A stretch of 64,000 nt of DNA. Source: Bacteroidales bacterium. Its GTDB lineage: Bacteria > Bacteroidota > Bacteroidia > Bacteroidales > JAADJA01. The notes below the pieces were generated by a model. It made no database searches. It saw only the letters and a list, made by a program, of their open reading frames with translations, and had not been told where the DNA came from. Below, piece after piece: positions 33,410-46,386 of the stretch. The DNA lies in contig JAWKKL010000001.1 of NCBI GenBank assembly GCA_041393275.1, positions 65,927 to 129,926 of the forward strand. Direction: 5' to 3'. How positions within the stretch are numbered: position 1 is the first letter of the stretch; each line of letters starts with the position of its first letter. The translations under genes were made by a program, and so were the position numbers.

Positions 33410-34792
33410 TTAATCTTTCAATATGGCTTTATCGTGTAAATGAGGGACCATACAGTTCCAGCCAAACCTATCTTTAATTTTAACTCGTAAAACATCTGAT
33501 GCATGGGGCTCGCCATGGATGATAAATACCTTTTCCGGTTTATTTGTAATGTCTGACAACCAATCCAGAATTTCACCCTGGTCGGCGTGCGATGACATAG
33601 TATGAATATGTTCTACGGTTGCCCTGACTTGAAAATAGTGGCCATGAAGTTTTATCTCAGTCGTTCCTTCACTGATCATCCTCCCCCGTGTTCCTGCTGC
33701 CTGGTAGCCTGGGATAATTATCGTTGCATTTGGATCATCCATATGCGATTCAAGATAATGCAGAATCCGCCCGCCATTCATCATGCCACTTCCGGCAATG
33801 ATAATTCGTGGGTGTGGGTTTTTGGCCAGTTTGCGCGTTTCTTCAATGGTGTGTACCATACGTGTACTTATAAAAACCTCCCTGAAAACATCAGGCGCCA
33901 GTTTAAGCCAGTCAGGATATTTTAGGAATAGCTTACTGACATCATTTCCCATGGGGCTGTCAAGATAAACCGGAATGTCGGGAATTTTATTTTCCTGTTT
34001 TAATTTCCAGATAACGTACATAAAATCCTGGGCGCGATCCACCGTAAAGCTTGGAACTATTAGTGGTCCGTGATTTTCAAAACTTTTATTGATAATCTTT
34101 AACAATACATCTTCTGTCGAATCGGATGGGTGGAGCCGGTCTCCATAGGTTGATTCTACAAATATATAATCCGCTTTTTCTGGTTTTTCAGGTGAAAGCA
34201 ACATGGGGTCATTTGGCCGGCCAATATCTCCCGAAAAAACAAAACGTTTTCCGTTAATGTCCATTTCGATAAAGGATGCTCCTGGAATATGGGCATTTTT
34301 ACGAAAACGAAAACGGATGTCATCGTTTATTGAAATAAATTCGTTGAGTGGTTCTGGTTTCAACAATGGCAACGTTTTCTTTACATCCTTCAACGTATAC
34401 AGAGCCAAGGCCGGACTGTGTTTTGAATAACCGCGGGTGTTTGCTTGCTCTGCATCCTCCTCCTGGATTTTGGCGCTATCAGTCAAAATAATTTCAGCTA
34501 AATCCGCCGTTGGAAAAGTACAATAAATGGAACCTTTAAATCCCTGGTTCACCAACCTGGGCAGGTACCCTATATGATCCAGGTGGCCGTGGGTTAAAAT
34601 TACATGGTCTATTTCTGCTGCCGGAAAAGGCAGGTCCATCCAGTTCAGTTCACGTAAATTCTTTAATCCCTGGAATAGGCCGCAATCAACCATCAGAGTT
34701 TGGTTATTGTATGAAATAAGGAATTTTGATCCGGTAACGGTTCCGGCAGCTCCCAGAAATTGAACCGATACAGTATTTGACTTTGCAAGCAT
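33410..34792 (-). CDS. MBL-fold beta-CASP family hydrolase (RNA-metabolising metallo-beta-lactamase type)
   Basis: 460 aa. The HxHxDH motif is in ILTHGHLDHIGYLP. The length and C-terminal HGEP...-type end are typical of beta-CASP proteins. Confidence 0.7.
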   Translation of the reverse strand: MLAKSNTVSVQFLGAAGTVTGSKFLISYNNQTLMVDCGLFQGLKNLRELNWMDLPFPAAEIDHVILTHGHLDHIGYLPRLVNQGFKGSIYCTFPTADLAEIILTDSAKIQEEDAEQANTRGYSKHSPALALYTLKDVKKTLPLLKPEPLNEFISINDDIRFRFRKNAHIPGASFIEMDINGKRFVFSGDIGRPNDPMLLSPEKPEKADYIFVESTYGDRLHPSDSTEDVLLKIINKSFENHGPLIVPSFTVDRAQDFMYVIWKLKQENKIPDIPVYLDSPMGNDVSKLFLKYPDWLKLAPDVFREVFISTRMVHTIEETRKLAKNPHPRIIIAGSGMMNGGRILHYLESHMDDPNATIIIPGYQAAGTRGRMISEGTTEIKLHGHYFQVRATVEHIHTMSSHADQGEILDWLSDITNKPEKVFIIHGEPHASDVLRVKIKDRFGWNCMVPHLHDKAILKD

Positions 34793-34903: not shown

Positions 34904-35809
34904 ATGGAAGAATTTGTAAACACCTGGATATATAATTCCACCATCGGTAAGCTGGTTGCCATCGTTATTGGCGTTGCCGTTATCTGGACCTTAATGAAAA
35001 TTCTGAAACGAAGAATTGCTGGGCCTATTCAAAGTACTGACAACCGCTACAGAACAAAAAAACTTCTCGATTTTACCGGATATTTTCTGATGATCATAAT
35101 GATCACTATTGTTTTCAGCGATAAACTTGGTGGATTAACAGTGGCTCTTGGTGTGGCCGGGGCCGGTATAGCTTTTGCCTTGCAAGAGGTGATTGCCAGT
35201 GTGGCCGGTTGGCTGGCCATTTTGTTTGCCGGCTTTTATAAAACGGGTAACAGGGTACAGCTTGGCGGTATTAAAGGGGATGTGATTGATATTAATGTTT
35301 TACGCACAACGCTCATGGAAACCGGCCAGTGGGTGGATGGTGATCTTTACAATGGCCGAATTGTGCGTATTGCCAACAGTTTTGTTTTTAAGGAGCCGGT
35401 TTTTAATTATTCTGGCGACTTTCCTTTCCTTTGGGATGAAATCAAAATTCCGGTCCAGTTTGGTTCTGACTACGATAAGGCAAGGGATCTTTTTCTAACC
35501 GTAACCCGCGAAGTAACTTCAAAAGAAACCGCAGAATCAGCGGAAACATGGAAACATATTGTCTCAAAATTTATGATTGAAAATGCCCGGACAGAACCCA
35601 TGGTTTCCCTTATTGTCAATGATAACTGGGTGGAATTTACAATCCGCTATGTGGTAAATTTTAAGAAAAGGCGAATAACCAAGGATGAGTTGTTTACCAA
35701 AATCTTAAAAGCCGTTGAAACCGGAGGCAGCCGTATTAAATTTGCCTCCGCCACATTCCAATTGGTTGAAGCGCCAGATTTTAATGTTTCAATTAAGAGT
35801 GGAAAATAA
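34904..35809 (+). CDS. MscS-family mechanosensitive channel
   Basis: 301 aa with three N-terminal TM helices, then GNRVQLGGIKGDVIDINVLRTTLMETG. Confidence 0.75.
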   Translation: MEEFVNTWIYNSTIGKLVAIVIGVAVIWTLMKILKRRIAGPIQSTDNRYRTKKLLDFTGYFLMIIMITIVFSDKLGGLTVALGVAGAGIAFALQEVIASVAGWLAILFAGFYKTGNRVQLGGIKGDVIDINVLRTTLMETGQWVDGDLYNGRIVRIANSFVFKEPVFNYSGDFPFLWDEIKIPVQFGSDYDKARDLFLTVTREVTSKETAESAETWKHIVSKFMIENARTEPMVSLIVNDNWVEFTIRYVVNFKKRRITKDELFTKILKAVETGGSRIKFASATFQLVEAPDFNVSIKSGK

Positions 35810-35832: not shown

Positions 35833-38727
35833 ATGAAAAAAACATACATTGTCATACTTTGCATGCTTATGCCTTTTCTGGTAATGTCGCAAAAATTCGA
35901 CAACAGCCAGATTACAAGCATGGTGGTAAAATTTAGACAAGACCCAAAAGGGCCCTACAAGGATATTCGCTGGTTTTGTAAAGATGGAACTACCCGGCCG
36001 CCTCAGGAACGATGCCCCGAACCGGGTGTGCAACGGGCACGCTATAAAGATGAAGTTGTTTCACTGGCTAAAACCAACCATGTTTTTCTGGGTCAAATTC
36101 TCGCAACAACTGATTTCAGCGAGTTCTGGGATGAAACCAGCTATCATTCCCGGTTAAAACAATACCAGCTTGAAAAATATTTAATAAGAACAAATGATGG
36201 TTGGATTTTGCGAAAAGCACAATATTACCGGGGCGCATTTCAGGCGGAAGATGAAGAAAACTGGGGCGTTGAATTTTTTAACTGGTTGCTGGAAGATAAC
36301 AACCGGTTGAAGCAAAATTTCTTCCTCATCCGCGAAGCCGCCAAAGATATCCCACACCAGGGTGATGATAGCAAAACCCAAATGGTTCGTGCTTTATCAA
36401 AAGAAATTTCGGATAGTGTCCAATCTTTTTTAAACATACGCATCAAAATTCATGGCCAGCCTGAAGCAACTGACATACAAACGGTAAAACAGTTCAGAGA
36501 AGCAAACAAAAACAAACTTTCGGCAACCCAGCTTAAAAAGGTGGACGAACTCATTGCTAATATGGAAATCGTTTATCAGCCGGCTAACCTGAATTCGTTG
36601 AAGAAATACCTGAAAAATATTCCTAAAGAATCCGAGGTGGCTAAATCCATCCAAACCTTAACAGACCAGTATAATACTAAATCCGGGAAGGATAAAATTA
36701 TTGATCTGGCTAATAGGCTTCTACTAATCCGAGAACAAATTACAACCATCCCAAAAAGTTCCGGACGGCTTGCCTTGCTCGATATTTCATTAAAACTCGA
36801 AGAAATCCTGTTTAGGGAGATGAAATCATGGGATAGCAAAACATTGCAAGACCTGCTATCGAAAACCTATTACCTTGGCCTGGCTTCAGCCGGGTGCGGT
36901 TACATTGAAATGTGGGAATGGTCAACCATCAAATACCATTTTGAAAAGCCCATGTATGCATCAATCTCTCTTGCGGACTTGAATAATATCCTTGAGTCTT
37001 CAAGACAACTGGTCGAATGGAGTGCCGGAATGTCAAGGGGTGTTTACAAAGATGCCATTGACCTGTTCAATGGTTTTGAACCTTTAGTCTACGGTTTTAC
37101 TGATGATAGGGTCAGGTCTTCATCCTTGCTCTATTTGGGAAACTGTGTAAGTGAATTAGGAGAATTTATTTCCCATGAAGCCGATCTTTCGAACAAAGTA
37201 ATGGATATTTCGGGACAAAGCCACATCAGGGGAATCAATCCCGGTTTTGCCATGGGTGAATTGGTGGTGTTGAATGAAATAACTGAAAATACAATTATTT
37301 CCGGGGATAAAATTTATGTGTTTGACCATCCTCCCGCAGATTTAAAGCCAGTGGCCGGTATTGCCACGGTTACCGAAGGAAATATGGTTTCTCACGTTCA
37401 GCTTCTCGCCCGTAATCTTGGCATACCCAATGCAGTTGTATCGGCTGATAACCTGGAGCAACTGAAAAAATTCAACGGAAAGAAAGTGTTTTACGCTGTA
37501 TCAAACAAAGGAACGGTTATTATGAAGCCGGCTGAACAGATGACTGCTGAGGAGAAAAAGCTGTTTGAAACAAAAAAGAGAAGTGAAGAAAAAATTACGA
37601 TTCCGGTTGACCGGATGAATTTGAAACAAACCAACATGGTAAACCTACGTGATCTAAATACAAAACAATCAGGAATCCTTTGCGGGCCAAAAGCGGCCAA
37701 TCTCGGCCAGTTAAAACTCATGTTCCCCGACCATGTGGTGGAAGGTTTTGTCATTCCGTTTGGCATTTTCAGGCAGCACATGGAACAAATCATTCCCGGC
37801 AAAAAATTATCCTATTGGGAATTCCTGAATGATATTTTTATAAAGGCAATGGACATGAGTAAGCAAGGCGAATCAGAAAATGATATTGACACCTATGTGC
37901 TTGGGGAGTTGGATGTGTTGCGAAAAGAAATAAAATCCATGAGTCTCACCCCGGAATTTATTGCAGACCTTGAAAAATCCTTTATTAACATTTTAGGAAA
38001 AAAAATTGGCGATATTCCGGTATTCCTTCGCAGCGATACAAATATGGAAGACCTGAAAGATTTTACCGGGGCAGGTTTAAATCTTACCTTATTCAATGTT
38101 GTTGATAGAGAAAAAATCCTCCAGGGAATCAAGGATGTGTGGGCATCACCTTATTCAGAGCGGAGCTATAAATGGCGTCAGCGTTATTTATTAAATCCTG
38201 AAAATGTATATCCTTCTATCCTGGTCATCCCGGCTGTGGATGTTGATTATTCGGGGGTCATGATCACCAAAGGTATTGTTACCAATAACGATGACGACCT
38301 GACCATCGCCTTTAGCCGCGGAGCAGGAGGTGCGGTCGAAGGACAAGCTGCTGAATCGTACCTGCTCAAATTTGATGGGGAGAATCTCCTGTTGTCGCCT
38401 GCGAGAGAGCCTTTTTATATCAAGCTTCCGGCCAAAGGGGGAACGGATAAAACCTTTGCCACGTTTGAGAAACCTATCCTCAGTGAAAATAACTTAATGC
38501 AATTGCGTGATTTTGCCTATAGGATTAAACGCGACATGGCTAAATTACCCGATTCAAAGTCAGAAGGCCCGTTTGATATTGAATTGGGATTTAAAGACAA
38601 TAAAATCTGGTTATTTCAGATCAGACCGTTTGTTGAAAACAAGAATGCTTTAAAAACGGAGTATTTAACTTCCATAACACCGGTAATACCCGAATCGAAA
38701 TTGATAAATTTAAACACAACACTTTAA
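35833..38727 (+). CDS. Signal-peptide-bearing PEP-utiliser family protein: unknown ~440-aa N-domain, then a His swivel (mobile) domain, then a C-terminal PPDK_N-type ATP-grasp
   Basis: MKKTYIVILCMLMPFLVMSQ. Swivel domain VAGIATVTEGNMVSHVQLLARNLGIPN, with the His codon at 37393-37395. ATP-grasp motifs CGPKAANLGQL, FLRSDTNMEDLKDFTGAGL and VWASPYSERSYKWR. Confidence 0.7.
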   Translation: MKKTYIVILCMLMPFLVMSQKFDNSQITSMVVKFRQDPKGPYKDIRWFCKDGTTRPPQERCPEPGVQRARYKDEVVSLAKTNHVFLGQILATTDFSEFWDETSYHSRLKQYQLEKYLIRTNDGWILRKAQYYRGAFQAEDEENWGVEFFNWLLEDNNRLKQNFFLIREAAKDIPHQGDDSKTQMVRALSKEISDSVQSFLNIRIKIHGQPEATDIQTVKQFREANKNKLSATQLKKVDELIANMEIVYQPANLNSLKKYLKNIPKESEVAKSIQTLTDQYNTKSGKDKIIDLANRLLLIREQITTIPKSSGRLALLDISLKLEEILFREMKSWDSKTLQDLLSKTYYLGLASAGCGYIEMWEWSTIKYHFEKPMYASISLADLNNILESSRQLVEWSAGMSRGVYKDAIDLFNGFEPLVYGFTDDRVRSSSLLYLGNCVSELGEFISHEADLSNKVMDISGQSHIRGINPGFAMGELVVLNEITENTIISGDKIYVFDHPPADLKPVAGIATVTEGNMVSHVQLLARNLGIPNAVVSADNLEQLKKFNGKKVFYAVSNKGTVIMKPAEQMTAEEKKLFETKKRSEEKITIPVDRMNLKQTNMVNLRDLNTKQSGILCGPKAANLGQLKLMFPDHVVEGFVIPFGIFRQHMEQIIPGKKLSYWEFLNDIFIKAMDMSKQGESENDIDTYVLGELDVLRKEIKSMSLTPEFIADLEKSFINILGKKIGDIPVFLRSDTNMEDLKDFTGAGLNLTLFNVVDREKILQGIKDVWASPYSERSYKWRQRYLLNPENVYPSILVIPAVDVDYSGVMITKGIVTNNDDDLTIAFSRGAGGAVEGQAAESYLLKFDGENLLLSPAREPFYIKLPAKGGTDKTFATFEKPILSENNLMQLRDFAYRIKRDMAKLPDSKSEGPFDIELGFKDNKIWLFQIRPFVENKNALKTEYLTSITPVIPESKLINLNTTL

Positions 38728-38731
38728 ATAC

Positions 38732-39988
38732 ATGAAAAAGCTAAAGTTTCTATTGCTTTCACTCCTAATTTTTGCTCTTCAGGGAGAATCTTTTGCCTAT
38801 CCCTACGACGGTTACTATATCTCCGGTATACGGCGGTTGGTCCGGCTACAGTTAATTATGATGGGTGCAATCAAAGATACAAAACCTGTTTTGGGCGCTC
38901 AGAAATCCATTATGGACATTCATCTGAATCTGATGAACGAAAAAGGCGATAGCCTTGAAGCTTTTCCAGCGACCGATCCAGCCTTACAAAAATCAATAAA
39001 CGCTCTTTTCCCATACATGCATGAAAGTTATTCGCTTTGTGTAATTGATATTACGTCGGGCAAACCTATCCGGTATGCACAGCGAAATGAAAAACGGGGC
39101 TATATGCCAGGCAGCGTAGCAAAACTTGCTGTGCTTGCAGGATTATTTAACGAACTTCAAAAGCTTTATCCCGATTCGTTTGAATTGAGGCAGCAAGCAA
39201 TGAGAAACAGGTTGGTTAGGGCCGGTAAATGGGCCAACTATGATGAACATACCGTACCATTTTTTAATCCGGAAACACAAAAATTTTACAAAGCCGTTGT
39301 CAAAGAAGGAGACACTTGTTCGCTTTACGAATGGGCCGACCATATGATCTCCGTAAGTAACAATGCAGCTGCCAGCATAGTTTGGAAAGAAGCGCTGCTT
39401 ATGCAGGCATTTGGGGCAAATTATCCACCAACAACTGAAGAAGAAGCTGAGTTTTTTAGTACCACGCCAAAATCAGAACTAACGGCAATGGCCGTGGCGG
39501 TTGTTGATGAACCGCTAAGAAATATGGGGATCACCAAGGAGGAGTTCAGGCTGGGAAGTATGTTTACTCGTGACGCCAAAAAAATCGTTCCGGGCGCCGG
39601 TGGTACCATCGCCAGCCCTTATGGATTGATGAAATACCTTGTAGCCATGGAAAGAGGAAAAATTGTTGACCCTGAATCAAGCCTTGAAATCAAACGGCTG
39701 ATGTATGCCACCGACCGCCGGATACGGTATGCCGCCTCTACTGCCCTGACCGATGCCGCCGTTTATTTTAAATCGGGTAGTTTGTATAAATGCAAACCGG
39801 AAGAGGATTTTAAATGTGGAAAATATATGGGTAATGTAGAAAACTATATGAACTCGGTAGCGATTGTCGAACAACCCGACGGGACAACCTACATGGTCAC
39901 CATGATGTCGAATGTCCTGAAAAAAAATTCAGCTAATGATCATTTTGCCCTGGCTTCTCAGATTGATAAAGTGGTAAGAAAAAAGTGA
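38732..39988 (+). CDS. Exported class-A beta-lactamase-fold serine hydrolase (function unknown)
   Basis: Signal peptide MKKLKFLLLSLLIFALQGESFA. The motifs SVAK (SxxK), SVSNN (SxN) and KSGS (KTG-like) occur in the right order. It starts 4 nt after the upstream gene. Confidence 0.65.
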   Translation: MKKLKFLLLSLLIFALQGESFAYPYDGYYISGIRRLVRLQLIMMGAIKDTKPVLGAQKSIMDIHLNLMNEKGDSLEAFPATDPALQKSINALFPYMHESYSLCVIDITSGKPIRYAQRNEKRGYMPGSVAKLAVLAGLFNELQKLYPDSFELRQQAMRNRLVRAGKWANYDEHTVPFFNPETQKFYKAVVKEGDTCSLYEWADHMISVSNNAAASIVWKEALLMQAFGANYPPTTEEEAEFFSTTPKSELTAMAVAVVDEPLRNMGITKEEFRLGSMFTRDAKKIVPGAGGTIASPYGLMKYLVAMERGKIVDPESSLEIKRLMYATDRRIRYAASTALTDAAVYFKSGSLYKCKPEEDFKCGKYMGNVENYMNSVAIVEQPDGTTYMVTMMSNVLKKNSANDHFALASQIDKVVRKK

Positions 39989-40017
39989 TTATTTTTGGCT
40001 TAATTACTAATTTTTAG

Positions 40018-41184
40018 ATGAGGCAGGACATTTTCATCGGTTTCTTTGATTTATTTATTTTTCTGGGCGTATTTCAGGGAATATTTCTAGCCTGGTTTTT
40101 TATCAAGAATGGCAAAAGTGAGCAACGCGCCAATTTATATCAGGGCCTGCTCTTGTTATTTTTAAGTCTTGGAATATTTGAGGAATTGCTTAACAATACA
40201 GGGTATATTGTTCAAATGTTGCCAATTTCAAACTTTACCGAACCCCTGGCTTTAGCTTTTGCTCCACTTGTCTACTTGTATATTATTAAATCTCTAAATC
40301 CTGACAAAAATGAAAAGGTTTGGCCACATTTTATACTTTCAGTATTCTGGTTGTTTTATATGTATTTTTATTGGGCTCAGGCTAATGATCTAAAGTATAA
40401 TTCCTATATCGGCTCCAAACATCCTGATTGGGAATTCCTTGATGTTGTGCCAAAAATGGACGAGGATCCATTAGGGATAAGGTATTATTTCAATGAAATG
40501 CTGGCCGTCCAATTTATAATTTACATTAGAGTTTCAATGGTTAAGTTGTTACGAAAATTCAGATCACTGAACCAACAGTTGTTTAATACTAAAAATGAGT
40601 TATTAATCACGTTACGTAATACAATTATTCATTTTATTATCATCATTTCTGTATTTCTTATAACCAAACTTTATTTTGGAATGAGGAGTGATATTGGTGG
40701 TTATTGGATTGCAACCTATATTTCATTTATGATCTATGTAACAAGTTATCAGGTTTTAAACAGGTCTGAGTTTTTTAATCATCCAAGTTCTTTTATGGCT
40801 TTCCCTATGCCTAAATATCAAAAATCTTCTCTGTCGGAAGATAATAAGGAATTGATTTTATCCAAAATCAAAAAAGAGATGGAAAGTCGAACTTATTTTT
40901 CAAATAATTTAGCTTCACTTTCAGGGTTGGCAAAACAAATTAATGAGTCATCACATCATGTATCACAGGTAATAAATGAAAAACTAAACAAGAATTTTTT
41001 TGAATTGCTGGCCGAATACAGAGTGGAATACGCACAAAAGCTTATCAGGGAAGACAAAGAAATAAAACTGACCGTGGAAGAGCTGGCGGAAATGGTCGGA
41101 TATAATTCAAAATCGTCTTTCAATACTGCATTTAAAAAAATAACTTCCTTAACACCCACCGAATATAGAAAATCAATATGTTGA
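40018..41184 (+). CDS. AraC-family transcriptional regulator with an N-terminal multi-TM domain
   Basis: 388 aa. The C-terminal HTH region is LAKQINESSHHVSQVINEKL...VGYNSKSSFNTAFKKITSLTPTEYRK. Confidence 0.75.
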   Translation: MRQDIFIGFFDLFIFLGVFQGIFLAWFFIKNGKSEQRANLYQGLLLLFLSLGIFEELLNNTGYIVQMLPISNFTEPLALAFAPLVYLYIIKSLNPDKNEKVWPHFILSVFWLFYMYFYWAQANDLKYNSYIGSKHPDWEFLDVVPKMDEDPLGIRYYFNEMLAVQFIIYIRVSMVKLLRKFRSLNQQLFNTKNELLITLRNTIIHFIIIISVFLITKLYFGMRSDIGGYWIATYISFMIYVTSYQVLNRSEFFNHPSSFMAFPMPKYQKSSLSEDNKELILSKIKKEMESRTYFSNNLASLSGLAKQINESSHHVSQVINEKLNKNFFELLAEYRVEYAQKLIREDKEIKLTVEELAEMVGYNSKSSFNTAFKKITSLTPTEYRKSIC

Positions 41185-41320
41185 TCTTAGTAATTGATAA
41201 TCTTTCTCTTAATCAAATTATAATGTTCTTCCCGATAAGGCCGTACATCGTTCCGATAGGCTAAGTCGTTGCAATTGGCCAAGTGATATTAGGTTTGCCA
41301 GAAATTCAAATCATAATATC

Positions 41321-42550
41321 ATGACAACGGAAAAAATTCAGAAAACAGATCAGAAATCAGAACGTCAATATTACATTGATTGGTTACGTATACTTCTTAT
41401 TTTTAGTGTATTTCTTTTCCATATTGGAATGATTTTTAATTCCTGGGGCTGGCACGTGAAAAATGATGTGACTGCAGGTTCAAAAGGAGTTTTATGGTAC
41501 ATTATGGTCTTTATGCACGAGTGGCGTATGCCATTGCTGATCCTGATATCTGGTGCCGGTACTTATTTTGCCTTGGGTAAACGAACATCCTGGCAATACC
41601 TCGGTGAACGATTTAAACGACTTTTCATACCCTTGTTAGTTGGTGTATTTACGTTAGTTCCTGTTCAGGTATACATTGAGAAATCGGCTCAATTTGGTTC
41701 TTTGATGGAATTTTATCCACATATGTTTGAAGGAATATACCCAAAGGGTAATTTCAGCTGGCATCACTTGTGGTTTATTGCTTATTTATTTTTCATTGCC
41801 CTGATCATTGCCCCATTTTTAAATTTTTTCAGAAGTGGACGATTTGACCTTTTTGTTGGCAGACTGGCCAGGATCGTATCCAAAAAGTTTGGTGCAAATA
41901 TTTTTGTGGTCCCGATGCTTTTATCACAACTCCTTCTCCGTCCTTATTTTCCTGAAAATACACATGGTTTATTCGATGATTGGGCAGAAGTAATGTACTT
42001 TTTGATATTTTTCCTTTCGGGATTCATATTGCTTTCAAACAATAAGATAACTGAATCAATAAGGAAACAAAAATGGTTTTTTTTAGTGGAAGCATTAATC
42101 ACAACCGTTGTACTGGTAACTGTTCCATATATGATAGGTGAAAAAGCCGGCAACCTGCTTTGGGATACCCTGGAACCCTTTGTTGCCTTTTCGTGCGGAC
42201 TGACAGCCATCGGTTTTGCAAAACAATATTTGACCAAAAACAACAAACTTCGTAAACTTGCCAATGAAGCTATTTACCCGTTCTATTTATTGCATCAACC
42301 GTTGATCGTTGTGGTTGGTTATTATATGGTGCAATGGAATATATCTGTTTTTGCGAAAGTACTTTTTATCACCCTCACATCCTTTACCCTAACTGTTGCA
42401 ATCTATTGGTATCTGATCAGACCGTATAATGCCTTGAGGATAATATTCGGGATGAAAATGAACAGGATAGAAAAGGGGGACGAAATACATGGTTTGTCTC
42501 CTTCCCCTGTATCCCTGCTGCAAAATAAAAACATAATCCTGAAAAAGTAA
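41321..42550 (+). CDS. Acyltransferase family 3 (OpgC-like) integral membrane protein
   Basis: 409 aa. YYIDWLRILLIFSVFLFHIGMIF plus about 10 TM helices. Confidence 0.7.
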   Translation: MTTEKIQKTDQKSERQYYIDWLRILLIFSVFLFHIGMIFNSWGWHVKNDVTAGSKGVLWYIMVFMHEWRMPLLILISGAGTYFALGKRTSWQYLGERFKRLFIPLLVGVFTLVPVQVYIEKSAQFGSLMEFYPHMFEGIYPKGNFSWHHLWFIAYLFFIALIIAPFLNFFRSGRFDLFVGRLARIVSKKFGANIFVVPMLLSQLLLRPYFPENTHGLFDDWAEVMYFLIFFLSGFILLSNNKITESIRKQKWFFLVEALITTVVLVTVPYMIGEKAGNLLWDTLEPFVAFSCGLTAIGFAKQYLTKNNKLRKLANEAIYPFYLLHQPLIVVVGYYMVQWNISVFAKVLFITLTSFTLTVAIYWYLIRPYNALRIIFGMKMNRIEKGDEIHGLSPSPVSLLQNKNIILKK

Positions 42551-45397
42551 TTATGTTTTCAACAGCTCAAACAAAGCTTGCTTTGCAAAATTTTCGATCT
42601 TGGGATTTTTATTATTTGTAAAATTAGCAACAAGTGGAATATACTTTTTATCTTTAATTTGAGCAATCAAATAAAGGGTCGCTAAATTTATTTTTACATC
42701 ATGACCGGAAAGCAACATCGAAAGACACTGAAATTCATCCGGTATTTTCAGGTTCAGGTTTTTAATGGCCTCCTCCGAAAGTGTATCCAGCAGTGCTGTT
42801 TCAACAATGGGAACCAACACCCTCTTTAAATTGGTCTCTAACAGGTTGTCTAAAAACTCTACAGCATTTATGCGCATTTCCGGCTTTTTACTTTGTATTC
42901 CCTGGTAAATATTTAAAATATCATCAAAGGGATATTTTAATCCCAACAATCTAAAAATCCGTTCCAGGTTTCCATCCAGCCGACGTTCCAACAGTACGAT
43001 CAAACTTTTTCGAGCCTCAAGTTCTTTTTCGTTTTGCTCCACACCGAAGTTTTTTTCCTCTATATCCTTTACTGTGGATTGGGTATAAAGTGCGGTTAAT
43101 GTTTCAAGATACAAATGGGCTTCATCCAAAATCCGCCTGATCACATCCTTTTGATGGAAGCGAAGATTAGGGTGGTTAATTTTCAATGTATTCAACGAAC
43201 GGAGAGCTTCCATGCGAAGGCCGATATCAGGATGATCGAGCAAAGAAAATAACAGTTCGACCGATTGCTGTGTCCCAATTTGTTCTAAAATGGAAGGAAC
43301 ATGATGCAATAGTTCAATGCCCCATAAATCTTTTTGGATGATTTCAGCAAAATTTTCAACAATGGCCGGACCATAATTTACAAGCGCCATTTTAGCCGAT
43401 GTCCTGAATTCTTCCTGGATAAGAAAATCAGATAAACAATCGATGAATTCAGGACTTAAGGTATTTCCAGCTGATATGATAGCCTGATTTACGATGTCCG
43501 GGTCTTCATCCTTCATGAAGTTTTTGATCTCAATATAAAAAATAGCGATATTAGCTTGTGCAATCGCTTTTAGAATAATCTTTTTTCTGAATTTGATTTC
43601 CTCAGGATCTTTTAACCCAGCCAGGCTATTTATCCTTTTTTCGATGAGTTTTTCAAGGTCAAATTTATTCCTGAGATCAGGATTATTCCGTGATTCAAGG
43701 GCGAGGCTTACAAGGGCAGCACCCCGCACCCTGTAATCTTTATCATGAAGATATTTTGTCAAAAATTCTACCCGGTTTTCGGGAACATGAGCAATGAGGT
43801 ATTCAAAAGCCGCTGATTTTACTTGTTGATTCGGGTCATTGATCAAAAGTAAGACGCTATCTACACTATGTTGATTTCTGAAAAAATACAAACATTGTAG
43901 TGCTTCCGCACGGATGTCAGCCGATGCATGGTCAAGCAATTTGCTCACATCATCAAATAATCTGTCATCAGGGAATTCTTTTATTTTGCGCAGGATGTAT
44001 ATAATTTGAGTCTCAGTTCCCTTCTGCAATACTTTCCGCAGTCCGCTCAGGACAGATTCTTTTGATAAATCCAGCGAGCCTTTTTTCTCATGGTTTCCTT
44101 TTGTTTGTTCAATTTTTAATTTAAACGACCGCACATACTCAAACCGGATTTTTCGTGAAAAATATATCCAAACAAAGAAAAGGGCAAGAATTATAAGGCT
44201 GATAAAGCGGGTGGAAAGATCAAGCCCGTTCACCACAAAAATAAGGATTATCCCGCTAATTCCTGTGGCCGCGCTATCAATAAAAACATCAATAAAACTT
44301 TTTGTTTGGTTTTTAATCTCAAGGGGTATCGGAAGGGCCATAAGCTCAATGGCTGATTTATTTACCGATTGTTTCAGGCTCCCATCTATAAGTTTTAAAA
44401 TAATAACAGCCCAAAGTTCAGGAAAAATCAAAACGAGAAATGCCCCTAGCATGATGCCGAATGGAAGAAAAAAAAGCGATGTGCCTACGCCAAATACACC
44501 TACAATCCTTCGTGTTATAAAAAGCTGAATGATAAGTGAAATGAGGTTAAAGGTCGAAAACCAAAACCCAAAGAAGGCGGTCAAATCATCGGAGTTGGGA
44601 ATTTTTAATGAAGCGATGGCACTGAACTGATAGTCGACAAGCTTTGCGACGATGACACTGATCCCAATTATGGTCGCCAGGTAAGTCAGGTGTTTCGATT
44701 TTCTGATGAGGGCGATGGGGTTAGAATCAAATCCCTTAATCCGTTTTTTGCGTTGAAATTTTGTTTGCGTTGGTAAAACCTCTTTTTTCCATATGGTTTG
44801 TGTAATCGGAATACAAAATGAAAGTAAGATTGCCGCCACAAAAGGGAGGGTTTCGCTACCGATTTGTTCGGCAATGAGCGATGTAAGGTAACCCCCGAAT
44901 ATGCCTCCTGCAATTGCCCCGGCTCCAATAAATCCGAAAAGACGTTTGGCTTCCCTGGCATTAAAAACAATGTTTGCAAGTACCCAAAATTGAGAAGCTG
45001 ATAGTACCGCAAAAATGGCCACCCATATATAAAACAGGTATAAAACCCAGCCCTCAAGGAAATTAAGCCGTAACAATACCCCAAAAACAAAAAGACTCGT
45101 AACAGACCACAGCATGGTTCGTGTAATGATGATGTTAAGGGGCATACGTGATAATAACCTGGAATATAACAATGAAACCAAACCAGCAAAAACAGCAACA
45201 AGTAAAAAAGCATTGGGCAGGTTTTCGGCTCCCATTTTGGCAAGGAACAATCCGTTGACAGCGGGTTTGACTATGAGAAGTGTGGAAATGATCAGGAAGA
45301 TGTTCAATTGCATCAATACTGCACGGCGGTACTCTCCCTCCCGAATATCAAATACATTCCTGAGCAAATGCTCTGCATATTTTTTGATGGTCTCCAT
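42551..45397 (-). CDS. TLC/AAA-family nucleotide (ATP/ADP) translocase-like membrane domain fused to a ~500-aa HEAT-repeat domain
   Basis: 948 aa. FWVLANIVFNAREAKRLFGFIGAGAIAGGIFGG matches the TLC hallmark (FW..AN....EAKR.Y). There are about 11-12 TM helices. C-terminal repeats include LLDHASADIRAEAL, LHDKDYRVRGAAL and LLDHPDIGLRMEAL. Confidence 0.65.
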   Translation of the reverse strand: METIKKYAEHLLRNVFDIREGEYRRAVLMQLNIFLIISTLLIVKPAVNGLFLAKMGAENLPNAFLLVAVFAGLVSLLYSRLLSRMPLNIIITRTMLWSVTSLFVFGVLLRLNFLEGWVLYLFYIWVAIFAVLSASQFWVLANIVFNAREAKRLFGFIGAGAIAGGIFGGYLTSLIAEQIGSETLPFVAAILLSFCIPITQTIWKKEVLPTQTKFQRKKRIKGFDSNPIALIRKSKHLTYLATIIGISVIVAKLVDYQFSAIASLKIPNSDDLTAFFGFWFSTFNLISLIIQLFITRRIVGVFGVGTSLFFLPFGIMLGAFLVLIFPELWAVIILKLIDGSLKQSVNKSAIELMALPIPLEIKNQTKSFIDVFIDSAATGISGIILIFVVNGLDLSTRFISLIILALFFVWIYFSRKIRFEYVRSFKLKIEQTKGNHEKKGSLDLSKESVLSGLRKVLQKGTETQIIYILRKIKEFPDDRLFDDVSKLLDHASADIRAEALQCLYFFRNQHSVDSVLLLINDPNQQVKSAAFEYLIAHVPENRVEFLTKYLHDKDYRVRGAALVSLALESRNNPDLRNKFDLEKLIEKRINSLAGLKDPEEIKFRKKIILKAIAQANIAIFYIEIKNFMKDEDPDIVNQAIISAGNTLSPEFIDCLSDFLIQEEFRTSAKMALVNYGPAIVENFAEIIQKDLWGIELLHHVPSILEQIGTQQSVELLFSLLDHPDIGLRMEALRSLNTLKINHPNLRFHQKDVIRRILDEAHLYLETLTALYTQSTVKDIEEKNFGVEQNEKELEARKSLIVLLERRLDGNLERIFRLLGLKYPFDDILNIYQGIQSKKPEMRINAVEFLDNLLETNLKRVLVPIVETALLDTLSEEAIKNLNLKIPDEFQCLSMLLSGHDVKINLATLYLIAQIKDKKYIPLVANFTNNKNPKIENFAKQALFELLKT

Positions 45398-45468
45398 TTA
45401 CAGGCCTGACTTTGACTTGGCTAAGTTACGAAAAGAATACAGAGAATAAATTCCAGGAAAGGCAGCTT

Positions 45469-46386
45469 TTAATTCTTCAGCACCAGTTCGATTTTGGTGA
45501 CCAGTTCGCGGCATATTTTTTCACCCTCCGCATCTTCGATGAGCGTAACCAGGATATACCTTCTTCCGTCAGGTCCCCAAACAAGAACCGAATCCGTATG
45601 AAAATTTTGCCAGGTTCCCGATTTCCTGAATATTTTTGCCCTTGGGGCCACCTTGTCAAGTGTATTTACAAATTTATGATGCAGCTCTGGATCAACCATC
45701 ATATCAAGCATGATTTTCGACCGTTCAGGACTTACCAGTTTTCCGTAGGCAAGCATATAATAATACCTGCAAACCTGCGAAACAGTGGCTGCATGGCTAA
45801 GCCCTTTCATTGGCTCCGGATACCGTTCGCCATATTTGGCATAACGTTTTCCTACCCATAAACCACCGCCATAATCTTCGTCGTACAGGTCATATTTTGG
45901 GTCGGTTAAAACACTTTCAATCTTTTCGTATCCTAACCTGTCAATCATTCGGGTAGAGGCTGCATTATCAGATTTGCTGATCATTAATCGTAAATCATTT
46001 CTTATTTCATCGGATTCTTCCATTTCTCCTTTTTCAATGGCATCTTCAGCGGCCAATAAAACGGCAATTTTTGGCAGGCTGGCAGCATACATCATTACAT
46101 TCCCATTTACTCTTGCATATTTTACATTTTCAGGATCGCGCAAGTCCACAAGGCCCACCGCCATTTTTTTTTGTTCAATCAATCGTTTCCACTTTTTATT
46201 TTTATTTAATTCAGTAATTAACTTTTCCTGAAAGGGTAAATCAACAAGATTCCTGAGGGGTTTGATATCGGAAATAGCGAGTGGAAGTGTATCAAAATTT
46301 GGTTTGATCTCATCACTTTTTTGTGTACAGCCTGTAGTTCCAAAAAGAATTAGCAAAACAATGGAAATCAGTAATTTGTTTTTCAT
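45469..46386 (-). CDS. Lipoprotein with a class-A beta-lactamase fold (serine hydrolase, function unknown)
   Basis: Lipobox LFGTTGC. SLPK (SxxK), SKSDN (SDN) and KSGT (KTG-like). It lies upstream of, and probably in one operon with, the TLC::HEAT gene. Confidence 0.65.
   Translation of the reverse strand: MKNKLLISIVLLILFGTTGCTQKSDEIKPNFDTLPLAISDIKPLRNLVDLPFQEKLITELNKNKKWKRLIEQKKMAVGLVDLRDPENVKYARVNGNVMMYAASLPKIAVLLAAEDAIEKGEMEESDEIRNDLRLMISKSDNAASTRMIDRLGYEKIESVLTDPKYDLYDEDYGGGLWVGKRYAKYGERYPEPMKGLSHAATVSQVCRYYYMLAYGKLVSPERSKIMLDMMVDPELHHKFVNTLDKVAPRAKIFRKSGTWQNFHTDSVLVWGPDGRRYILVTLIEDAEGEKICRELVTKIELVLKN

Follow-up and report, generated by a model that had tools for sequence, protein, structure and literature searches.

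Introduction

The plastid takes up ATP via a carrier of the NTT family, and hydrolases act in this compartment, which needs such an import, on a polymer phosphorylated by a glucan, water dikinase (GWD). Textbook envelope biology places no ATP outside the inner membrane of bacteria; periplasmic processes are thought to use pre-activated substrates, relayed proton-motive force or cytoplasm-facing ATPases. GWD1 consists of central alpha-helical, His and C-terminal ATP-binding domains, in this order (PMC13553574); fusions of NTT carriers with HEAT repeats (NTT-HEAT) were catalogued, their function being stated as unknown (Major, Embley & Williams 2017, PMC5381601); according to a hypothesis paper of 2014, ADP and ATP must cross the membrane in some prokaryotes, but a gene was not named there (PMC4289276); and Lig E, an exported ATP-dependent enzyme with an unexplained ATP source, offers a precedent. 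Described here is a locus on a 64,000-nucleotide stretch of DNA from a Bacteroidales bacterium (GenBank assembly GCA_041393275.1, contig JAWKKL010000001.1, positions 65,927 to 129,926; the whole stretch is called the window, and coordinates refer to it). The locus is a conserved, self-contained four-gene envelope module (dikinase-like protein, SxxK protein BlaA, TLC::HEAT carrier, SxxK protein BlaB) that is broken by an unrelated two-gene insertion. An ATP-exporting carrier that feeds a periplasmic water dikinase, the substrate of the latter being shared with both SxxK enzymes, is considered to be the best reading of this module, with a probability of roughly 0.4.

Results and Discussion

Gene content and conservation of the module

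Open reading frame (ORF) calls in the window were checked, and domains were assigned by Pfam and NCBIfam scans. The module consists of the gene of the predicted exported dikinase-like protein (35833-38727, + strand; 964 aa; Pfam PPDK_N and PEP-utilizers), that of BlaA, a putative exported SxxK acyl-serine enzyme (38732-39988, + strand; 418 aa; Pfam PF13354, Beta-lactamase2, E 1.6e-10; Sec-type leader), the TLC::HEAT carrier gene (42551-45397, - strand; 948 aa; TLC E 2.6e-9, HEAT_2 E 1.1e-20) and that of BlaB, a putative SxxK lipoprotein (45469-46386, - strand; 305 aa; Pfam PF13354 E 1.4e-19; lipobox-like ...GTTGC). An earlier note on this DNA had listed six ORFs in the interval, and all of them were found where it had put them, with each domain call recovered by Pfam/NCBIfam. 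Its pairing of one hydrolase-fold gene with each large protein was likewise borne out: BlaA follows the dikinase gene downstream with 4-nt spacing, the BlaB gene precedes the carrier gene by 71 nt, and both pairs are kept in a genome (G275) in which dikinase/BlaA and BlaB/carrier are found on separate contigs.

A first scan (one genome per species, dikinase query) gave 43 loci from Marinilabiliales, Cytophagales, Chitinophagales, Saprospiraceae, Flavobacteriaceae, Balneolaceae, KSB1, Margulisbacteria and Calditrichota; the cassette order dikinase>BlaA> <carrier<BlaB was observed in nearly all Bacteroidota-type loci with enough flank. When the ORFs around the dikinase gene in these loci were clustered, the four module families were the only recurrent ones. 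In a second scan distant dikinase members served as queries, at least 585 species were matched and the best 80 loci were kept; these came from Gemmatimonadota, Acidobacteriota, Gamma-, Beta- and Zetaproteobacteria, Desulfobacterota, Nitrospirota and Myxococcota, and the same four families cluster in them in several rearranged gene orders. All ~125 loci together cover Bacteroidota, Balneolota, KSB1 and Margulisbacteria plus the phyla of the second scan. Clustering of 1475 neighbouring ORFs of the 125 loci placed the four module families in 125, 104, 90 and 78 loci; a fifth conserved gene was not found among these ORFs, the next family (response regulators and kinases) being present in 15/125 loci. 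Sixty loci are well flanked (at least 6 kb on both sides); 40/60 carry all four families, 11/60 the trio of dikinase, BlaA and BlaB with no carrier next to it, and 9/60 fewer families. The Margulisbacteria locus was considered as a carrier-less case and rejected as such: the BlaB gene of this locus has a divergent TLC-only gene (411 aa) as its neighbour.

Co-occurrence was followed by a phylogenetic profile of 400 evenly drawn Bacteroidota genomes; these are related to one another, and the counts are therefore non-independent trials. The dikinase was found in 11/400 genomes. Orthologous TLC-HEAT carriers (>500 bits) fell into dikinase-positive genomes in 8/8 cases and numbered 0 in the other 389; a TLC-type match of any kind was obtained in 11/11 dikinase-positive vs 27/389 dikinase-negative genomes, and Pfam TLC in 0/14 control genomes. 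One genome (G351) has the four module genes at four separate places, so co-occurrence outlasts the loss of synteny. In the window's own genome TLC is single-copy, and BlaA and BlaB are the only PF13354 genes. The earlier note had made its hypothesis depend on joint occurrence of the carrier and the PEP-utiliser-like gene in other genomes; this check was run, and the joint occurrence proved strong across genomes and phyla. Literature searches for a publication describing the exported dikinase family or the module found none. The four-gene module is thus regarded as previously undescribed; it is kept together in hundreds of bacterial species of about ten phyla. Cultured strains with the module include Labilibaculum manganireducens 59.10-2M, Formosa sp. 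A9 and S-31, Parahaliea maris and P. aestuarii, Agaribacterium haliotis and Mariprofundus micogutta.

Two observations were made on individual loci. A complete module (L092, contig CAXQPB010000182.1) lies on a contig binned as the archaeon Nitrosopumilus; in the carrier tree the carrier of this locus groups with gammaproteobacterial sequences, and the contig was probably misbinned and does not represent an archaeal case. Five module loci, all proteobacterial or of Desulfobacterota, contain a gene of an HAD-IIIB acid phosphatase (Acid_phosphat_B, E 1e-34 to 1e-38; hydrophobic N-terminal stretch), embedded in the module or at most 146 nt away (L076:16788-17720, L097:14287-15120, L111:8094-8945, L125:14602-15468, L088:438-1490); such a phosphatase would be consistent with periplasmic phospho-chemistry and would fit phosphate removal or AMP clearance.

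The dikinase-like protein

Behind its leader the protein has a ~440-aa all-alpha domain (35896-37218, + strand; no Pfam match; delineated in the AlphaFold2 model) that is presumed to bind the substrate, followed by the phospho-His swivel domain (residues 466-566; 37228-37530, + strand; Pfam PEP-utilizers; motif GNMVSHVQLLARNLGIPN with invariant S520-H521) and the ATP-grasp nucleotide-binding domain (residues 600-941; 37630-38655, + strand; Pfam PPDK_N). PPDK_N (PF01326) was matched at 617-941 (E 1.2e-25, 90.9 bits vs cut-off 27), and the PEP-utilizers swivel (PF00391) at 504-544 with 21.1 bits, slightly below the gathering score of 23.1; residues 1-480 gave no Pfam match. In the AlphaFold2 model (predicted local distance difference test, pLDDT, 82.9) the parts are predicted to follow in the order leader helix, Cys49/Cys61 hairpin, all-alpha 72-450, swivel 466-566 and ATP-grasp; the N-domain (pLDDT 83.9) starts with the beta-hairpin carrying Cys49 and Cys61. 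The swivel precedes the ATP-grasp domain, which is a permutation of the order found in PEP synthase, PPDK and rifampin phosphotransferase (RPH).

The best Foldseek match of the whole protein was rifampin phosphotransferase (E 4e-14, ATP-grasp only); the RPH ATP-binding domain was matched with TM(target) 0.80-0.84 and E 3e-13, and HpeI and PEP synthase were matched as well. PEP synthase 8a8e was found by phmmer (E 1e-17), and the swivel motif aligns to its TSH motif ...GRTSHAAIVSRELGIP. H521 is invariant in 26 sequences; among 12 distant members SHVQLLARNLGIPN is present in 11, with the swivel His kept, and the RWFC...C motif and a hydrophobic leader in 12/12. One distant homologue (P0066) has Asn in place of the catalytic swivel His (ALSNVQLLARNLGIPN) and may be an inactive or differently acting variant.

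R733 and T752 are invariant and align with Arg117 and Thr136 of RPH-Lm, which position or bind the ATP alpha-phosphate (PMC4844700). GPKAANL (K620), DIE (E917) and Q929 (Q..RP) are invariant too; K620 and E917/Q929 are, by motif and spacing, the likely counterparts of the ATP/Mg residues of RPH-Lm (the K22, E297 set). The catalytic and ATP-site residues thus appear intact, and the alignments place the protein in the PEP-utilising/dikinase superfamily. It is not a PEP synthase or PPDK proper: the PEP/pyruvate-binding TIM-barrel (PF02896, PEP-utilizers_C) found in these enzymes gave no match, and the NCBIfam PEP synthase models scored at most 93 bits vs cut-offs of at least 598; the NCBIfam RPH model gave 61 vs cut-off 999.

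Compared with RPH-Lm, PEP synthase and HpeI/phenylphosphate-synthase-type dikinases, the module dikinase has a homologous ATP-grasp domain (Foldseek E 4e-14 to 1e-11) and keeps the swivel His motif and the R117/T136 equivalents, but its domain order is permuted and its third domain unrelated; these relatives are cytoplasmic, whereas the module dikinase carries a predicted export signal. With GWD1 and PWD it shares the order all-alpha substrate-side domain, His domain, ATP-binding domain; in contrast to these, it has no CBM45 or CBM20 in the Pfam scan, and no solved protein was found to be related to its N-domain in sequence or fold. GWD is partnered by polymer hydrolases such as amylases and works in the plastid, the module dikinase by SxxK serine enzymes in what would be the bacterial periplasm. 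The likeness to the GWD/NTT arrangement is one of architecture and logic, proposed here as a parallel and distinct from demonstrated homology.

Predicted export of the soluble proteins

A probable Sec-type signal peptide was read from the dikinase sequence at residues 1-19 (35833-35889, + strand): the N-terminus is MKKTYIVILCMLMPFLVMS followed by QK, and predicted cleavage between ...VMS and QK gives Gln at +1. Here, as in the other leaders of the window, a heuristic reading finds a positive n-region, a hydrophobic core and small residues before the predicted cleavage site. Positive charges precede the hydrophobic stretch, for which reason the N-terminus is expected to lie inside and the C-terminus outside. 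A hydrophobic leader stands directly upstream of the first conserved motif (RGPY) in 103/106 dikinase homologues from many phyla, and the Cys pair is kept in 108/122; leaders were recognized in 42/43 BlaA and 85/89 BlaB proteins. A profile of the N-domain found 643 representative clusters in a library of 1.84 billion proteins. Among the best 150 matches listed, every full-length protein has 900-1050 aa and the domain starts at about residues 25-70; from these lengths and starts the N-domain appears to be seen only in this architecture, behind a leader. Export of the dikinase, BlaA and BlaB is suggested by this heuristic but family-wide consistent evidence, and the extracytoplasmic dikinase proposed in the earlier note agrees with all of the features read.

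A cytoplasmic dikinase, its hydrophobic N-terminus being an anchor or its start codon miscalled, would have ordinary cytoplasmic ATP chemistry and some other reason for its linkage to the carrier and the Bla genes; in its favour is that localisation was read from sequence heuristics. A miscalled start or an anchor agrees poorly with a leader kept in nearly all homologues and placed always just upstream of the first conserved motif, with the charges that precede the hydrophobic stretch, with the conserved Cys pair and with the N-domain starting at residues ~25-70 in the full-length matches listed; both co-encoded Bla partners, moreover, are predicted to be exported. Of the explanations considered in this work, a cytoplasmic location is taken to be the least probable.

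BlaA and BlaB

The active-site motifs are invariant in both families: S128-x-x-K131, S209-x-N211 and K347-S-G in BlaA, and S103/K106 (AASLPK), S139/N141 (SxN) and K255-S-G in BlaB; a Cys354/Cys362 pair of BlaA is nearly invariant. The nearest solved structure of BlaA is a penicillin-binding protein (PBP) at E 0.087, which is not significant, and BlaA is ~130 residues longer than PBP-A/class A relatives; BlaB comes nearest to PBP-A Tll2115 (E 3.6e-4) and to the beta-lactamase 4ewf (E 4.6e-4). Compared with Tll2115 and class A beta-lactamases, both proteins keep SxxK, SxN and K(S/T)G at extreme divergence. The class A beta-lactamase model NF033103 (bla_class_A) gave 16.8 and 19 bits vs a cut-off of 200; with scores so far under the cut-off, the two proteins should not be called beta-lactamases. 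They are best described, from their conserved motifs, as probable active SxxK acyl-serine enzymes, extremely divergent, of the PBP/beta-lactamase fold. The earlier note had called them two beta-lactamase-fold paralogs. The common Pfam family supports the fold; descent from a recent duplication was rejected, the two sequences being barely alignable to each other and ancient relatives rather than recent paralogs.

An RPH-like kinase beside two beta-lactamase-like hydrolases might also be a periplasmic detoxification or antibiotic-resistance trio, in which the kinase would inactivate a toxic small molecule on its way in, and to which the carrier gives ATP or from which it exports the product. The top structural matches to rifampin phosphotransferase and the weak NCBIfam matches to RPH and class A beta-lactamase point this way, and related dikinases such as HpeI phosphorylate small aromatic molecules. 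Both NCBIfam matches, however, are far under their cut-offs (61 vs 999 for RPH; 17-19 vs 200 for bla_class_A), the N-domain is unlike the rifampin-binding domain, the domain order differs from that of RPH, and the module is chromosomal with variable flanks that carry no mobile-element or resistance-gene context; a resistance function is regarded as very unlikely.

The TLC/NTT carrier

The carrier matched Pfam TLC (PF03219) with 36.9 bits vs a cut-off of 21; TLC covers residues ~1-430 and HEAT ~455-948, HEAT_2 being matched at 486-566 and beyond. A second solved structure matched was 'ADP,ATP carrier protein 1' (9j3n, E 1.1e-5), the first, AtNTT1, being discussed below. A crude hydropathy scan gave ~12 hydrophobic segments and a central loop with 11 K/R. 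The N-terminus, the central loop and the segment after TM12 are all K/R-rich, and a cytoplasmic HEAT domain is predicted for this reason; the carrier is accordingly classed, from its sequence, as a probable TLC/NTT-family inner-membrane protein with a cytoplasmic HEAT domain. Outside Bacteroidota the carrier is mostly TLC-only (420-475 aa; Pfam TLC E down to 1.6e-21), and sometimes TLC-HEAT (~720-740 aa) or TLC-HEAT-cNMP (~1050-1070 aa).

In a maximum-likelihood tree of 104 TLC domains the Bacteroidota-type linked carriers, the window's among them, form one 35-row clade that is module-linked only (SH-aLRT 100) and is sister to 9 unlinked NTT-HEAT proteins. Module-linked carriers fall into at least five clades (TLC-HEAT, two TLC-only, mid-length TLC-HEAT and a small pair). 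Unlinked carriers lie between these clades, and the label changes 6 times, at least 3 changes being forced by well-supported branches. Since linked clades are interleaved with unlinked ones, the recurring partner is the TLC transport domain and not one inherited arrangement.

The N-terminal TLC plus C-terminal HEAT architecture is that of the catalogued NTT-HEAT fusions (TLC family, TC 2.A.12; PMC5381601), and NTT-HEAT-cNBD variants also adjoin the module in other phyla. The subclade described here is linked to the genes of a predicted exported dikinase and of two SxxK proteins, a context not reported in that catalogue; other Bacteroidota NTT-HEAT clades are unlinked to the module.

Two further arrangements of carrier genes were seen. 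In four gammaproteobacterial loci (L076, L097, L098, L132) the trio is accompanied by a pair of TLC carriers from different tree clades: one is TLC-HEAT (~720-740 aa), the other TLC-only (~410-490 aa). Independently of the module, and mostly in dikinase-negative genomes, some Bacteroidota have a TLC-only gene close to an NTT-HEAT gene (G308:C58, G320:C8, G360:C1, G368:C1, G364:C7; loci L138, L141-L144), directly adjacent in four genomes and ~3.5 kb apart in G320; this recurring pairing is a second context for such carriers.

The periplasmic module may be real and the carrier still move something other than ATP, namely the substrate or product (e.g., a phosphorylated or peptide fragment for recycling); the phosphoryl donor would then be leaked or extracellular ATP at nanomolar level, or a non-nucleotide donor. 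The TLC match is weak and MFS_1 also scores on the TLC-only partners, so that the substrate may be another one; about a quarter of the well-flanked loci have no adjacent carrier; extracellular ATP is measurable in other bacteria; and the acid phosphatase embedded in five loci fits product processing before uptake. To our knowledge, on the other hand, every characterised TLC-family member carries nucleotides or NAD. The ATP-site residues of the dikinase, furthermore, are all invariant, and a nucleotide is therefore very probably used by this enzyme; nanomolar external ATP lies far under the Km of 8 uM of the related dikinase RPH-Lm (PMC4844700). On balance, a carrier of substrate or product is held to be unlikely.

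As far as is known, characterised NTTs import ATP, and the direction might accordingly be the reverse: the exported dikinase would form ATP, as PPDK does in some microbes, with an external high-energy phosphoryl compound on the N-domain as donor and scavenged AMP plus Pi or PPi as further reactants. The carrier would import this ATP, which is the canonical NTT direction, and the cell would gain substrate-level energy from the periplasm or salvage nucleotides. Reversibility of the PPDK reaction is on record (PMC5371819); by record titles, the module is found mainly in sediment and marine bacteria, to which dissolved organic phosphorus is available. Such a scheme lacks a plausible abundant external phosphoryl donor among those known and leaves the two SxxK enzymes without a role, and the nearest structural relatives of the dikinase (RPH, HpeI, PEP synthase) are ATP-consuming water dikinases. 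ATP formation outside the inner membrane is thus thought to be quite improbable.

Proposed mechanism and its difficulties

If the carrier does export ATP to a periplasmic water dikinase, the following scheme may be put forward. The reaction of the dikinase would be that of an 'X, water dikinase' (ATP + X + H2O -> AMP + Pi + X-phosphate); His521 would carry the beta-phosphate from the ATP-grasp domain to the substrate, which the all-alpha N-domain would hold. The carrier would swap adenine nucleotides, ATP going out and AMP/ADP with or without Pi coming back in, and so feed the dikinase; the cytoplasmic HEAT domain might gate this exchange. BlaA and BlaB would act on the same envelope substrate, the phosphorylation of which would control or enable acyl-transfer or hydrolysis. 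For X we can offer a guess only, a polymeric envelope component, e.g., peptidoglycan or a periplasmic glycan. Lig E belongs to an unrelated enzyme family, and no dedicated carrier is reported beside it, whereas the module encodes one. The wider proposition, in which many double-membraned bacteria export ATP via TLC/NTT carriers and the dikinase phosphorylates an envelope polymer, thereby gating two PBP-like enzymes, is considered rather doubtful.

Several points weigh against ATP export to a periplasmic dikinase. As far as is known, characterised NTTs exchange ATP for ADP, not AMP, and this is a mismatch because a water dikinase releases AMP + Pi. Periplasmic ATP should leak via porins and meet periplasmic phosphatases. 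The carrier and the characterised NTTs are distant relatives only (AtNTT1, 9j3j, E 8.9e-8). The dikinase and both Bla genes occur without an adjacent carrier in 11/60 well-flanked loci and in 3/11 of the sampled dikinase-positive genomes; two of these three genomes have a TLC-only gene elsewhere, which in the tree is sister to a module-linked clade. The N-domain does not point to a substrate: neither a fold match in the PDB (best Foldseek E 0.08, in a library that ends in April 2026 and that the GWD1 central-domain entries 9HA9 and 9QVI may postdate) nor a sequence match there (best E 0.16 in the profile search) was obtained. Export is predicted from sequence heuristics, and the roles of BlaA and BlaB are proposed ones.

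The insertion and neighbouring genes

Between BlaA and the carrier gene lies a 2.56-kb insertion (39989-42550, + strand; low GC) with genes of an AraC-family membrane regulator (40018-41184, + strand; AraC helix-turn-helix E 1.7e-16; hydrophobic segments N-terminal) and an acyltransferase (41321-42550, + strand; Acyl_transf_3 E 3.7e-28; top NCBIfam match OpgC/MdoC, 93.6 bits vs cut-off 338). Neither gene was found in any of the ~125 related loci by comparison of neighbouring ORFs; among the module loci compared, the insertion is seen in the window's genome only. In the closest relative, L008, the flanking genes of which are 82-90% identical to those of the window, both genes are absent and the stop codons of BlaA and the carrier abut (TGAttaTTA); the segment of the window sits exactly at the point where these convergent stop codons meet. 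GC drops to 0.34 within it, and ATTAT occurs at both junctions; a search for flanking repeats or mobile-element marks around the insertion gave short matches at chance level only. The earlier note had counted the regulator and the acyltransferase as members of the system. Their absence from all related loci, the low GC and the placement between abutting stops rule this out, and the pair is regarded as a local insertion outside the system.

The dikinase gene is directly preceded on its strand by a gene of an MscS-family channel (34904-35809, + strand; Pfam MS_channel_2nd), a possible accessory outside the core. The two genes are 23 nt apart in the window and no more than 113 nt apart in L001, L002, L005, L008, L010 and L041; the adjacency was thus observed in 7 loci including the window, which may amount to only ~3 lineages. 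The channel may serve the module as an accessory in a minority of loci, or the synteny may simply have been inherited. Further upstream (33410-34792, - strand) is encoded a 460-aa beta-CASP/metallo-beta-lactamase RNase, the top NCBIfam match of which, with 373.8 bits far under the cut-off of 800, was to the Cas14 model of type VII CRISPR; aCPSF1 was also matched. A PADLOC scan for anti-phage defence found nothing relevant, and a promoter/terminator scan gave signals no better than shuffled sequence and was uninformative.

Conclusion

The module provides a first functional context for the NTT/NTT-HEAT carriers of free-living bacteria and for two deeply divergent families of the PBP/beta-lactamase fold. 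If ATP is indeed exported to a periplasmic dikinase, the module would correspond in bacteria to what glucan, water dikinase, NTT and hydrolase are in the plastid, would give NTT carriers of free-living bacteria their first physiological role and would overturn the rule that there is no ATP-dependent enzymology in the periplasm; should the substrate be an envelope polymer such as peptidoglycan, remodelling of the envelope would gain a new layer. The module is present in cultured strains, which makes the question of periplasmic ATP directly testable.

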